Origin: a virus
DNA: 64,000 nucleotides
Reading direction: 5' to 3' (one strand)
Virus record (IMG/VR): IMGVR_UViG_640753020_000004
The notes beneath the pieces are model-generated. The model saw only the letters and a list, made by a program, of their open reading frames with translations, did not search any database and was not told the DNA's origin. How positions within the stretch are numbered: position 1 is the first letter of the stretch; every line of letters begins with the position of its first letter. A program made the position numbers and the translations under genes. Shown piece after piece: positions 1-2,580 of the stretch.

Positions 1-1768
1 CAACGGCTTCTTTTAAACATATTATACCACAATTATATTAAATTTAAACTCATTTAAATTTATTTTTATAAATTATAGTATTTCTATAGATGGGGATGTG
101 ATTATTATAAAGGCAGCCATATACAGTAGAAAATCCTTATTCACAGGTAAAGGTGAATCTATTGAAAATCAGATTCAGCTCTGTAAAGAATATGGAGAAA
201 AGAATTTAAATTTAAAAAATGATAATTTTATAATATATGAGGATGAAGGTTTTTCCGGTGGAAATACAAACAGACCTAAATTCCAAGAACTATTGAAAGA
301 TGTAAAAAAGAGAAAATTTGATGTTCTTATGTGTTATCGGCTTGATAGAATAAGCAGGAATGTTGCCGACTTCTCAACTACATTAGAATTACTACAACAA
401 CATAATATATCTTTTGTAAGCATAAAAGAGCAATTTGATACAAGCACTCCTATGGGTAAAGCTATGGTATATATATCCTCTGTATTCGCTCAGCTAGAAA
501 GGGAGACAATAGCAGAAAGAATTAGAGATAATATGATTCAACTTGCCAAAACAGGAAGATGGCTTGGCGGGCAAACTCCTCTAGGGTTTGATTCCCAAAA
601 AATACTTTATTACAATTCTGAAATGAAAGAAAAGTCTATGTATAAACTCTCCCCTGTAAAAGAAGAACTTAAAAAAGTTAAATTAATTTACAATAAATAT
701 ATAGAATTTGGTTCTATATCCTTAGTTCTTAAATACTTATTATCTAATAATATAAGAGGTAAAAACGGAGGAGATTTTGCATCTATGTCTATAAATGATA
801 TTTTAAGAAATCCTGTGTATGTTAAATCAGATGATGGAGTTTTTAAATATTTATCAGATTCGGGCATAATTACATGTGGTACTCCTAACGGTAATGGTAT
901 TATGACCTATAATAAACGTAATTCAAAATATGTACCTAAAAAAAAGACTGAATGGATTGCTGCTATAGGAAAACATGAAGGAGTTATAGATAGCAATACA
1001 TGGTTAGAGGTTCAATTTCGTTTAAATAAAAATAAAAAGAAAGCAAATCCGAGACAAGGAACTTCTAAAAAATCTTTATTATCCGGGGTTTTAAAATGTG
1101 CCTTGTGTGGTGCTCCTATGCGTGTATGCTATGGTAGACCTAAAAAAGATGGAAGTGAAAGAATATATTATTATATGTGTACAATGAAAGCTCATTCAGC
1201 TAAAAGCAGATGTGATAATCCTAATGTAAAAGGTCCAGAGCTTGAAAAGGCCATTATTGAAAATATTAAACAGCTAAATACAACTAAGATACTAAAAGAA
1301 TTACAAGTTGCCAAGAATGAAGCAGCTGTATCCATTGAAAATAATTTCACTGAAACAATAACTAAAGAAATTAAAGATAAAAGCGATCAAATAAATACAT
1401 TGCTGGAGCAACTAGCTCATACGAATGCAAACAATTCTATTGCATCTGAATTTATAACAAGTAAAATTGAATCTTTAGGAAATGAAATAAAAAAATTAAA
1501 TTTGAAATTGGAGAAATCCAAAGATACTAAACAAGAAAACATACAGAAGAAATTAAACTTTGAAATAATAGAAAAATCATTGCATGAATTTAATTCATCT
1601 TTTGATATGATAAAAGACACTTCTAAGAAAAGACTTATACTTGAGAATATAATTGATAAAGTTTACTGGAACGGTAATACTGGTGATGTTGATATCCAGT
1701 TATGGGGAAGTAAAAAAAAACACACACTTCGTCCTGTAGTTCGCTAAATATGTCGCAATACAATACGT
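1..1768 (+). mobile_element. Right end of an integrated element (prophage or excision element A) carrying a serine recombinase
   Basis: The recombinase is followed within ~20 bp by an abrupt switch into a host gene fragment. The rest of the element lies outside the window. Confidence 0.7.
98..1747 (+). CDS. Large serine recombinase/integrase (resolvase + recombinase + zinc-ribbon domains, SpoIVCA/CisA-like)
   Basis: YSRKS catalytic Ser, YEDEGFSG, RP.FQ, YRLDRISRN, FAQLERETIAER, GGQTPLGF, LKCALCG..YYMC..C zinc ribbon, C-terminal coiled coil. Confidence 0.95.
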   Translation: MIIIKAAIYSRKSLFTGKGESIENQIQLCKEYGEKNLNLKNDNFIIYEDEGFSGGNTNRPKFQELLKDVKKRKFDVLMCYRLDRISRNVADFSTTLELLQQHNISFVSIKEQFDTSTPMGKAMVYISSVFAQLERETIAERIRDNMIQLAKTGRWLGGQTPLGFDSQKILYYNSEMKEKSMYKLSPVKEELKKVKLIYNKYIEFGSISLVLKYLLSNNIRGKNGGDFASMSINDILRNPVYVKSDDGVFKYLSDSGIITCGTPNGNGIMTYNKRNSKYVPKKKTEWIAAIGKHEGVIDSNTWLEVQFRLNKNKKKANPRQGTSKKSLLSGVLKCALCGAPMRVCYGRPKKDGSERIYYYMCTMKAHSAKSRCDNPNVKGPELEKAIIENIKQLNTTKILKELQVAKNEAAVSIENNFTETITKEIKDKSDQINTLLEQLAHTNANNSIASEFITSKIESLGNEIKKLNLKLEKSKDTKQENIQKKLNFEIIEKSLHEFNSSFDMIKDTSKKRLILENIIDKVYWNGNTGDVDIQLWGSKKKHTLRPVVR

Positions 1769-1772
1769 CATG
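1748..1772. other. Putative attR-type junction of element A
   Basis: Element arm ATATGTCGCA..ATAC-GT-CATG directly abuts the start of host-like coding (CAT GCT CAC GCC TGG = HAHAW). The arm is related, inverted, to the arm at 2303-2331. Confidence 0.55.
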
Positions 1773-2308
1773 CTCACGCCTGGCTGTATGATGTAAACAA
1801 AATCGAACCAATTGTAAGAAACTATATCTTATCTAAAGGAATAAAATTAAACTTGATATCACGGGTAGTAGATGTTGAAATGAAAGTAAATAAAATTAAA
1901 GGTGTTTACACCTCTAATGGGGAATATGAAGAAGGTGATGTATTTATCGAAACTACAGGTTCCACAGGTCCTATGGGAAACTGTATGAAATACGGAAATG
2001 GATGCTCCATGTGTATACTAAGGTGTCCAACTTTTGGTCCGAGAATAAGTATAAGCAACTGTGCAGGAGCTGAAGATTTCCATGGAGAAAGGACAGATGG
2101 AAATTATGGAGCTTTTAGTGGCTCATGTAAACTTGCCAAGGAAACTTTATCTAAAGAGCTGGTAAATAAATTAGAAGAGGACGGTGTGGTTGTTCTTAAA
2201 GTTCCAAAAGAAGATATAAACTTGGATAAGCTAAAAAATAAAGTTTGCCAGCAATATGCTTTAAAGGAATTTGCGGAAAATATAGTACTTCTTGATACGG
2301 GACATGCA
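1769..2308 (+). pseudogene. Internal fragment of a clostridial FAD-dependent oxidoreductase (GidA-like family), lacking both N- and C-termini
   Basis: The frame is open from HAHAWLYDVNKIEPIVRNYILSKGIKLNLISRVVD (upstream of the 1853 start) through GSTGPMGNCMKYGNGCSMCILRCP to ENIVLLDTGHA, then stops after two more codons (GTA TGA). There is no N-terminal Rossmann motif. Family assigned from memory of the motif. Confidence 0.72.
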
Positions 2309-2331
2309 GTATGAACAAAACTGCAACATAT
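2303..2331. other. Putative attL-type junction of prophage B
   Basis: Host coding ends at GGA CAT GCA and is followed by CATG-CA-GTAT..TGCAACATAT, which mirrors the 1748-1772 arm. Confidence 0.55.
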
Positions 2332-2580
2332 AGAAATGTATTCAAAGATATTGAAAACTCTACCTCTACAATATATTATACACTTCCTGAAAGAACAATT
2401 GCACAAAAAATTTATAAATTAAGAATGATCAAAGGATATACCCAACGTGAATTTGCTGAAGTTTGTTCTATAGGCTATTCTTCTTTATGTAAATACGAAA
2501 TAGGATTATCAAAACCTAAGCACGTTAATTTGGAAAAGATATGTCAAACTTTCAATATGTCTATTGATTATTTTTTATAA
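2311..2580 (+). CDS. XRE-family HTH protein starting inside the att arm
   Basis: IYKLRMIKGYTQREFAEVCSIGYSSLCKYEIG HTH. Its ATG overlaps the TGA of the truncated host frame (ATGA). Confidence 0.8.
   Translation: MNKTATYRNVFKDIENSTSTIYYTLPERTIAQKIYKLRMIKGYTQREFAEVCSIGYSSLCKYEIGLSKPKHVNLEKICQTFNMSIDYFL

Follow-up and report, generated by a model that had tools for sequence, protein, structure and literature searches.

A Clostridium flavoprotein gene split into three pieces by two sibling prophages, with sequence signals suggestive of excision late in sporulation

One flavoprotein gene of this Clostridium is divided into three pieces by two almost identical prophages of about 70 kb, each with its own large serine recombinase (LSR) and its own attachment site, and sequence signals suggest that both are excised late in spore formation to rebuild the gene. 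The window analysed here is a stretch of 64,000 nucleotides (IMG/VR virus record IMGVR_UViG_640753020_000004); coordinates prefixed C1 refer to the host genome and the remaining coordinates to the window. Positions 1774–2304 (+) constitute the middle third (codons 85–261) of a 425-aa GidA-like Fe-S flavoprotein gene of 1,278 nt, the second gene of a PyrK-like/GidA-like Fe-S flavoprotein operon. A blastn search with the intact locus of a sister genome (G005) places the 5′ part 67.9 kb upstream (C1:1927219-1927472) and the 3′ part 70.5 kb downstream (from C1:2066444), and the middle piece shows 97.4% identity to L002:1506-2036 and a Pfam GIDA match. Removing both inserts in silico yields an intact frame of 425 codons without a stop.

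A reading made from the sequence alone had described a host gene split twice between related attachment arms, and this observation is confirmed in every sequence detail. The serine recombinase reading frame occupies 98–1747 with its TAA stop at 1745–1747, CATGC is present at 1769–1773 and 2303–2307, 534 nt apart, and ATATGTCGCA at 1748–1757 (reverse complement TGCGACATAT) and TGCAACATAT at 2322–2331 each lie 17 nt from the crossover dinucleotide. One refinement concerns the host–element boundaries, which are the 3-nt overlaps TCA (1774–1776) and ACA (2302–2304). The CATGC at 1769–1773 is therefore wholly element DNA, whereas that at 2303–2307 consists of the crossover CA plus TGC from the element. 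The inferred crossover dinucleotides are CA at 1775–1776 and 2303–2304, and both sit on the first two bases of a CAC histidine codon (His85 for A and His261 for B). The reconstructed attP_A and attP_B sites are inverted repeats centered on CA, and the similarity of their arms is more than chance: the shared motif TGTYGCA starts exactly 24 nt from the central CA in both. The element-side arm of attR_A (1748–1773, ATATGTCGCAATACAATACGTCATGC) is conserved in six other genomes (G012, G016, G004, G008, G014 and G015), and the element-side arm of attL_B (2305–2331, TGCAGTATGAACAAAACTGCAACATAT) is half of a 19-nt inverted repeat in attP_B.

The inserts are two co-oriented myovirus-type prophages. Prophage A spans C1:1927473-1995366 (67,894 bp), begins 66 kb before the window and ends at window positions 1–1773 (+). 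Its last gene, co-oriented with the host gene, encodes LSR_A (98–1747, +, 549 aa), which ends 27 nt before the crossover; orthologues 72–97% identical are found at the same site in six other genomes of the genus. Prophage B spans C1:1995898-2066443 (70,546 bp), with its body at 2305–64000 (−), and runs 8.85 kb past the end of the window. PHROG searches of B identified large terminase, portal, head morphogenesis protein, tail sheath, tape measure, baseplate, tail fibre, endolysin and DnaB helicase genes, and the ORFs of A have the same lengths. Packaging, head, tail, lysis, replication and lysogeny modules are present and unbroken, and both elements look like complete prophages, although inducibility was not tested. 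Most ORFs of 120 aa or more are 100% identical between A and B, and the differences lie in the immunity genes, the tail fibre and the integration module. In a megablast search of 24.7 kb of prophage B against 50,697 phage records, only a 140-nt HNH patch was found, and no described close relative exists in that collection.

The two recombinases are 41% identical over their full lengths. Pfam identifies Resolvase (PF00239), Recombinase (PF07508) and Zn_ribbon_recom (PF13408) domains in order in LSR_A and in two further recombinase types (C and D), and PHROG 95 (integrase) matches both LSR_A and LSR_B, as expected for phage integrase-type LSRs. The LSR_B reading frame runs across attR_B. At the other end of prophage B, positions 2311–2580 (+) encode HTH_B, an 89-aa XRE-type regulator (Pfam HTH_3/HTH_19) whose ATG overlaps the TGA that ends the broken host frame (ATGA). 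HTH_B is type-specific, has orthologues 85–92% identical at site 2 in G012 and G016, and in the excised form is in frame with LSR_B; this fusion frame is open in three B-type prophages.

The tests named in advance by the sequence-only reading came out in its favor: the fragment is homologous to an intact conserved gene, the matching 5′ and 3′ parts lie at the far ends of the two elements, and the junctions are bridged by independent contigs. Contigs from two RNA runs of pure cultures and from a sludge metagenome with a variant strain cross both junctions, and the junction stretch is present in runs of 11 studies. A metagenome, X11, contains a 531-nt unitig with exactly the ends of the middle piece and also both empty sites carrying this strain's own allele, although those sites could belong to a prophage-free sister strain. 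The alternatives offered with that reading, a captured fragment or two collapsed prophages, are rejected. Its interpretation, two independent excisions by sibling recombinases acting as an AND gate, is largely supported, with two qualifications. Excision during development is inferred only from promoter-like sequences, and both candidate directionality factors carry the same sigma-K-type promoter class, making the arrangement a double lock on one signal rather than an AND gate on two different inputs.

Comparison across genomes supports independent use of the two sites. Among 20 genomes of the genus, the gene is intact in 10, split in nine and undetermined in one, where only the 5′ piece lies at a contig end. 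Each site has its own recombinase type, whose gene always lies directly upstream of the next gene piece, and each site is used alone in other species. The same sites are used in other genera, and in the Clostridiaceae the gene has four such sites, each with its own recombinase type. One genome has the gene in five pieces, and several carry remnants of 3–4 kb. All nine split genes reassemble into open frames and stay under strong purifying selection, and dN/dS is 0.03–0.06 between split genomes, as between intact ones. This includes four species that share one orthologous 3–4 kb remnant, 85–94% identical along its length. Recombinases in remnants also remain under purifying selection (omega 0.16–0.2).

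We infer that excision requires a small type-specific directionality factor, for which the candidates are a 59-aa ORF at C1:1989796-1989975 for A and a 53-aa ORF at C1:2064444-2064605, divergent from LSR_B, for B. The small ORF is the only gene besides the recombinase kept in all five remnants of the genus and in the site-2 remnant of G181, but no homologue of either small ORF was detected in the site-1 and site-3 remnants of G060, which carries a triple split. Searches of Pfam and PHROGs returned no match for either ORF, and since neither binding to the recombinases nor activity was examined, the retention pattern leaves their role as directionality factors undecided. HTH_B was also considered for this role, but ranks below the small ORF because all five remnants in the genus have lost the HTH gene and kept the small ORF.

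Promoter-like sequences provide the link to sporulation. GTAACA-N16-CATAnnnTA is present before the B-type ORF in G000, G012, G016 and G018, GTAGCA-N15-CATAACATA stands before it in another genus, and TCACA-N15-CATATAATA is present before the A-type ORF in G000, G012 and four remnants. These fit the mapped C. difficile SigK promoters (Table S6 of PMC7438776). The strict pattern occurs five times in the whole genome, and one of the five is this one. To validate the pattern we sought dpaA as a known SigK gene, but no orthologue above cut-off was found; yabG, used instead, has TGCACT-N16-CATAATATA upstream. For the host operon, whose promoter-like sequence lies at C1:1926148, GTAACA-N15/16-AATAAYCTR is conserved in 16 species within an otherwise unalignable spacer, with equivalents in other Clostridiaceae genera, in Caloramator and in an Oscillospiraceae MAG. 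The sigma-K assignment rests on likeness to a C. difficile consensus, and the −10 of the host operon begins with A rather than C and in G000 ends in TG. Other readings of this motif were less satisfactory: Rex and CodY boxes fit poorly and the middle is not conserved, the spacing is wrong for SigA, and for SigE the −35 GTAATA is close but C replaces T and the −10 fits worse. There are no expression data, and mother-cell expression of the target gene is likewise undecided. Homologues exist in non-spore-formers, and the operon also occurs in MAGs labelled Bacteroidales and Prevotella, indicating that it is not a sporulation-only gene.

The analysis thus demonstrates two sibling temperate prophages integrated in the same orientation within one gene, each with its own recombinase and attB, and precise excision of both restores the frame; the directionality factors, their sigma-K-type promoters and the timing of excision are inferences. 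In the model we favor, with moderate confidence, the mother cell would cut out both prophages late in sporulation and rebuild and express the gene, while the spore keeps both. The factor of A also sits in the phage early operon, so ordinary induction would excise A as well. Neither excision during sporulation nor its absence from the spore lineage was measured, and no experiment or read set here shows excision in a pure culture: the RNA-run contigs show only the integrated form, contigs drop rare variants, and the empty sites in X11 have no link to cell type. A reading in which the pieces work as separate subunits was rejected because the inner pieces have no start codon or ribosome-binding site.

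The strongest competing view, possible but less likely, is ordinary double lysogeny, in which the gene is merely a well-conserved, dispensable landing site for two integrase types, the prophages leave only on induction and the gene is simply off in lysogens. Both elements look like complete, inducible phages, and the A-type small ORF lies in a phage early operon behind a cro-like gene. The closest relative, G005, has the gene intact, so the two prophages may be recent arrivals in this lineage, and G012 carries different phage backbones with the same integration modules, which points to repeated phage-borne arrivals. Against this view, the four species sharing a non-phage remnant keep the split gene under the constraint described above and keep the recombinase and small ORF intact, sigma-K-type promoters stand before the small ORFs in prophages and in remnants of two genera, and the host operon has a conserved promoter of this type.

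Two further mechanisms appear unlikely. The sigma-K promoters could serve the phages selfishly, allowing them to excise and multiply in the doomed mother cell, which lyses anyway, at no cost to the spore and with repair of the gene as a by-product. Such promoters do stand before the small ORFs of complete prophages, but the 3–4 kb remnants have no virion genes and yet keep the same recombinase, small ORF and promoter, and the target gene itself carries the same promoter class. More doubtful still is a reversible 'active lysogeny' switch in growing cells, as for φ10403S in Listeria comK. Occupied and empty sites coexist with one allele in X11, and LSR_B has a sigma-A extended −10 (TGATATAAT), so the recombinase is probably always made; however, no vegetative promoter is evident before the small ORFs of the B type or of the remnants, and the pure-culture contigs show only the integrated form.

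A mis-assembly around a stray gene fragment can be dismissed even though A and B share about 50 kb at roughly 99% identity in tandem, a classic source of such errors, because independent contigs from four runs of at least three studies bridge 1774 and 2304, one from a variant strain with 16 differences, and because G012 has the same double split with different phages and G060 has its triple split in a complete genome. The second public assembly of this strain is about 68.5 kb shorter, which would fit loss or collapse of one repeat unit; this difference was not checked here.

A more speculative possibility, which we consider unlikely but not excluded, follows from the position of attP inside one long reading frame in B-type phages. 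On the excised circle the recombinase would be made as a 659-aa LSR–HTH fusion. Integration would cut off the HTH domain, give the recombinase a 13-residue host-encoded tail and place the ATGA-coupled HTH part under the host gene's own promoter. The architecture of the recombinase, and the expression of its detached domain, would then report whether the element is in or out, and rebuilding could proceed stepwise from 5′ to 3′ as each excision lets the host transcript reach the HTH gene of the next element.

If the favored model is correct, it would add a widely distributed new target to the short list of genes rebuilt by DNA excision during sporulation (sigK, spsM, spoVFB, spoVR, gerE and yabG). 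We found no report in Firmicutes of one gene carrying two to four independent elements, each with a matched recombinase, att site and small factor, and no paper that names this gene as a phage target or describes tandem prophages in C. kluyveri. The finding flags an uncharacterized Fe-S flavoprotein pair as a probable late mother-cell function, and the four recombinase/att sets, two of them with candidate factors, are natural candidates for orthogonal genome-engineering tools in Clostridium. In this organism, which appears to be the type strain of an industrially used chain-elongating species, two 68-kb direct repeats flanking a 531-bp gene piece are also a built-in source of genome instability.

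The arrangement follows the logic of SPβ and skin, applied twice to one gene. In SPβ of Bacillus subtilis, with the SprA recombinase and the SprB directionality factor (PMC4191935, PMC5499854), an intact, inducible prophage splits a mother-cell gene, spsM, an LSR gene sits at one end next to att, and precise excision rebuilds the gene. The sprB gene can be driven both by the phage early programme and by its own sporulation promoter. SprA is the nearest full-length solved relative of LSR_A, although a distant one (E about 1e-13). Here, however, two such prophages occupy two different attB sites in one gene with two recombinase and factor types, the target is an uncharacterized operon and nothing has been tested experimentally.

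The 3–4 kb remnants in sister species (G004, G008, G014, G015, G018 and G181) resemble skin in sigK (B. subtilis SpoIVCA/Skr; C. difficile CD1231 with the directionality factor CD1234; PMC5025042) and gin in gerE (GirC/GirX; PMC5595907), in that they are decayed elements that keep a serine recombinase and a tiny ORF of 47–57 aa (GirX is 42 aa). In C. difficile, CD1234 has a sporulation sigma promoter (Table S6 of PMC7438776). The target gene differs, the promoters here resemble SigK rather than SigE, and the same site is occupied by complete phages in some species and by remnants in others. The yin element in yabG of Clostridium botulinum (PMC10747680) is a clostridial prophage-like element with a serine recombinase in a SigK-controlled gene, for which a putative small directionality factor with a putative SigK promoter was proposed; yin was reported as unique to one strain, whereas the system described here is spread over many Clostridiaceae species with four sites per gene. 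Finally, in the nif and hup genes of heterocyst-forming cyanobacteria (PMC4874684; Calothrix NIES-4101, PMC11249958), several independent elements interrupt one gene or gene cluster and all must be removed in a terminally differentiated cell, but the phylum, the cell type and (mostly) the recombinases differ, and those elements are not complete prophages.

The ORF at window positions 98–1747 encodes a 549-aa large serine recombinase (LSR_A), in which Pfam finds Resolvase, Recombinase and Zn_ribbon_recom domains. From position 1748, one frame stays open to the TGA at 2312–2314 and its product matches the GIDA family. The observation made in the sequence-only reading holds, since each of the sequence details it listed is present at the position it gave. 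That reading had made its case conditional on homology of the fragment to an intact conserved gene and, in a search of 31 related genomes, we found an intact 425-aa gene, 99% identical over the fragment, in the relative G005. The gene is the second of a two-gene operon, where the first gene encodes a Cys-rich PyrK-like protein matching NCBIfam PRK05802.

A further condition named in advance was that the missing 5′ and 3′ parts of the gene should lie at the far ends of the two elements. The window corresponds to C1:1993594–2057593 of the genome studied here (G000), and alignment of the intact G005 locus to this genome gives three collinear blocks. The first (C1:1925965–1927472) contains the upstream gene plus codons 1–84, the second (C1:1995367–1995897; window 1774–2304) contains codons 85–261 and the third (C1:2066444–2067893) contains codons 261–425 plus downstream DNA. 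Neighboring blocks overlap by 3 nt on the intact gene, with TCA at the first junction and ACA at the second, and joining the three pieces gives a 1,278-nt frame with no internal stop. Element A is therefore C1:1927473–1995366 (67,894 bp) and element B is C1:1995898–2066443 (70,546 bp). The stop codon of LSR_A (TAA, 1745–1747) is in the same reading frame as the gene fragment that follows, so that within window 1745–1776 a single stop separates the recombinase frame from the gene piece. This is probably coincidence, since it is not conserved in the related genome G012.

PHROG hits identify B as a complete myovirus-type prophage, with a large terminase, portal, head morphogenesis protein, tail sheath, tape measure, baseplate, tail fibre, amidase endolysin and DnaB helicase. 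A and B are collinear and co-oriented, are about 99% identical over roughly 50 kb, and most of their ORFs of 120 aa or more encode 100% identical proteins. The cassettes that differ are the tail fibre, the tail sheath (88% identical), the endolysin (94% identical), some cargo genes, the CI/Cro-like immunity region and the integration module. This is the set of differences that a sibling phage needs to superinfect a lysogen and settle beside it. A third, more distant relative lies at C1:~3296000–3364698. It has its own serine recombinase (C1:3363025–3364698), about 39–41% identical to the B- and A-type recombinases, and abuts the truncated 5′ end of a lipoprotein gene on the opposite strand (C1:3364645–3364980), which may be another gene-splitting insertion.

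The recombinase of element B (LSR_B; C1:2064719–2066482) also lies at the right end of its element and aligns with LSR_A over its full length at 41% identity. We reconstructed the two attP sites from the element ends. The attP_A site is GTCGCAATAC..GTCATG / CATGAC..GTATTGCGAC around CT-CA-TT, and attP_B has a perfect 19-nt inverted repeat, TATGTTGCAGTTTTGTTCA, around a 16-nt center whose middle is CA. In both sites the center of symmetry coincides with the CA of the 3-nt overlap and TGTYGCA starts 24 nt from that CA. The related att arms pointed out in the sequence-only reading are thus real and fit sibling enzymes. On the host side, both crossovers are the first two bases of a CAC His codon (His85 and His261).

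An assembly artefact had been named as an outcome that would defeat this reading, and the junctions were examined in independent data. The stretch 1400–2700 is found in runs of 11 studies, and single contigs bridge both junctions in two RNA runs of pure cultures and in a sludge metagenome. The metagenome contig differs at 16 positions and therefore comes from another strain. In the fermentation metagenome X11, the fragment is a separate 531-nt unitig (1774–2304) at depth 69.7, whereas a unitig bridging attR_A has depth 31.7. Loose ends at 1774 and 2304 continue into the 5′ and 3′ gene parts, and the 5′ side carries the allele of this strain rather than that of G005. Occupied and empty sites thus coexist in X11, an observation compatible either with excision or with a prophage-free sister strain; the junctions themselves are not an artefact.

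Within the genus, 20 species genomes were examined. The gene is intact in 10, split in 9 and undetermined in one (G009), where only the 5′ piece is present, at a contig end. Four insertion sites exist: site 0 at about codons 10–13, site 1 at codon 85, site 2 at codon 261 and site 3 at codons 332–336. Each site has its own recombinase type. Type A at site 1 is 72–97% identical to LSR_A, type B at site 2 is 67–95% identical to LSR_B, type C at site 3 is about 51% identical to LSR_A and type D at site 0 is about 33% identical. The recombinase gene always lies directly upstream of the next gene piece and is co-oriented with it. G012 has the same double split as G000, but its two prophages share only the integration modules and a few patches with A and B. 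G016 (labelled Candidatus Clostridium eludens) has all four sites occupied, so that the gene is in five pieces. G004, G008, G014 and G015 at site 1, and G018 at site 2, carry remnants of 3.1–3.9 kb, which hold the recombinase and leftovers of phage genes such as a Rad52-like gene and Gp157. In G008, an extra partial copy of codons 317–385 with a site-3 attR-type arm lies downstream of the repaired-looking gene (L034:7342–7548) and looks like the scar of a former site-3 element.

We also examined a draw of 200 further genomes of the family, of which 194 were scored (G000 included) and 165 have the gene. About two dozen outside the genus have only partial best matches. All five of these that we examined are split at the same sites, among them a triple split in the complete genome G060. 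In G058, a genome of another genus, the gene is cut at site 2 and is followed by four diverged extra copies of the 3′ part (C1:2691828–2746313; about 50–58% identity to the query), and the tandem elements may each carry their own substitute gene end.

All nine split genes in the genus reassemble into open frames of 424–426 codons (G016 from codon 10). dN/dS between two split genomes is 0.03–0.06, the same as between intact genes. The strongest case is the clade of G004, G008, G014 and G015, whose remnants are orthologous along their whole length (85–94% identity), so the decayed element predates the species. Since then the gene pieces have diverged with dS 0.15–0.21 and dN 0.006–0.012. The recombinases in these remnants are intact, with omega 0.16–0.2. 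G007 belongs to the same clade and has an uninterrupted gene, which implies a precise loss. We infer that a gene that stays this constrained while physically split is rebuilt in some cells.

In all five remnants in the genus, and in the site-2 remnant of G181 from another genus, one small ORF accompanies the recombinase, and we consider it a candidate directionality factor. No homolog was detected in the G060 remnants. In the G060 site-1 remnant, the recombinase gene itself has a sigma-K-like sequence (TTAACA-N15-TATATTTTA; L072:3211–3260) 19 nt before its start. The A-type ORF is 57 aa in G004 and 71–93% identical among the four site-1 remnants. Its homolog in prophage A (59 aa, C1:1989796–1989975, about 61–66% identical) is the gene after a cro-like gene in the A-specific region, and B has no copy. 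The B-type ORF is 53 aa (C1:2064444–2064605) and divergent from LSR_B. It is 91% identical in G012, 79% in G016, 39% in the G018 remnant and about 50% in the G181 remnant.

Mapped C. difficile SigK promoters read (A/T)GTAACA, then 15–16 nt, then CATAnnnTA, with variants such as TTAGCA and TCACA at −35 and A at the first −10 position (Table S6 of PMC7438776). Promoter-like sequences of this class stand before the small ORFs. For the B type these are GTAACA-N16-CATAACATA in G000 and G012, GTAACA-N16-CATAATATA in G016, GTAACA-N16-CATATTTTA in G018 and GTAGCA-N15-CATAACATA in G181. For the A type, (C/A)TCACA-N15-CATATAATA is present in G000, G012 and all four remnants. Genome-wide, GTAACA.{15,16}CATA...TA occurs 5 times on both strands, and the chance of a hit in a given 100-nt window is 4e-5. 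Five near-identical copies of GTAACAAATACC(G/A)TATATAATAAATA.., at C1:557533, 2610496, 2945453, 2958778 and 3026015, represent a dispersed repeat of unknown nature that happens to match the promoter pattern. LSR_B itself has a sigma-A extended −10, TGATATAAT.

The target operon carries the same promoter class. The spacer upstream of the PyrK-like gene is unalignable between species except for one block, AAGTAACAAAA .. AAAAATAAYCTRATAWTRTACA, which reads GTAACA-N15/16-AATAAYCTR. The relaxed pattern has 30–34 hits in the genome, four of which lie before this operon, the B-type small ORF, a feoA gene and a LysM protein gene; the feoA promoter is a SigK promoter in C. difficile. Equivalent boxes with different spacers stand before the operon in C. 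bornimense, two Caloramator genomes, a Clostridiaceae MAG, a Bacillota MAG, an Oscillospiraceae MAG and the genus designated g39, but are absent before the homologs in the Prevotella, Bacteroidales and Pelosinus records. In G000, a spoIIID-like gene and a small Arg-rich acidic protein gene lie directly upstream of the operon (C1:1925213–1925966).

At both attL junctions, the broken host frame ends in a TGA that overlaps the ATG of an XRE-type HTH gene (ATGA), and the first codons of that gene are the att arm itself. These are HTH_A (155 aa; C1:1927476–1927943, L010:1577–2044) and HTH_B (89 aa; window 2311–2580), and transcription from the host operon would therefore read into them. Both genes are type-specific and the arrangement is conserved in G012 and G016, but all five remnants in the genus have lost them. 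They therefore belong to the LSR–attP–HTH module but are probably not the directionality factor. In the reconstructed attP of all three B-type prophages (L009:7150–8853 joined to window 2305–2580 in G000, L039/L040 in G012 and L044/L043 in G016), the recombinase frame runs without a stop into HTH_B, giving a 659–667-aa fusion. These three modules are about 95% identical, so this counts as one observation and not three. Integration splits the fusion, and in the integrated state the recombinase ends in 13 host-encoded residues.

The analysis establishes the anatomy of the locus, the sibling relation of the elements, the reality of the junctions, the pairing of sites with recombinase types and the purifying selection on split genes. 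It is by inference that we regard the small ORFs as directionality factors, read together with the operon by sigma-K in the mother cell, so that both prophages would leave late in sporulation and the gene would be rebuilt and expressed while the spore inherits the integrated state. In this view, the factor of A can also be expressed with the phage early genes. The proposal in the sequence-only reading of an AND-gate rearrangement by sibling recombinases is largely supported: both excisions are needed and the recombination events form a logical AND, but both appear wired to one signal. Of the alternatives, plain double lysogeny with a dispensable target carries the most weight, followed by phage-selfish use of the mother cell and then by a reversible vegetative switch. 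Mis-assembly is practically excluded.

What is new here is the target operon, the four sites with matched recombinase types (two of them also with candidate factors), the two nearly identical complete prophages as the interrupting elements and the sigma-K-type promoters on the small ORFs across genera. None of the papers on the SPbeta, skin, gin and yin elements (PMC4191935, PMC5025042, PMC5595907, PMC10747680), and no paper found in our literature searches, names this operon as a target or reports more than one element in one Firmicute gene. The logic is nevertheless that of SPbeta/spsM, skin/sigK, gin/gerE and yin/yabG, and multiple interruptions are known in cyanobacterial nif genes (PMC4874684, PMC11249958).
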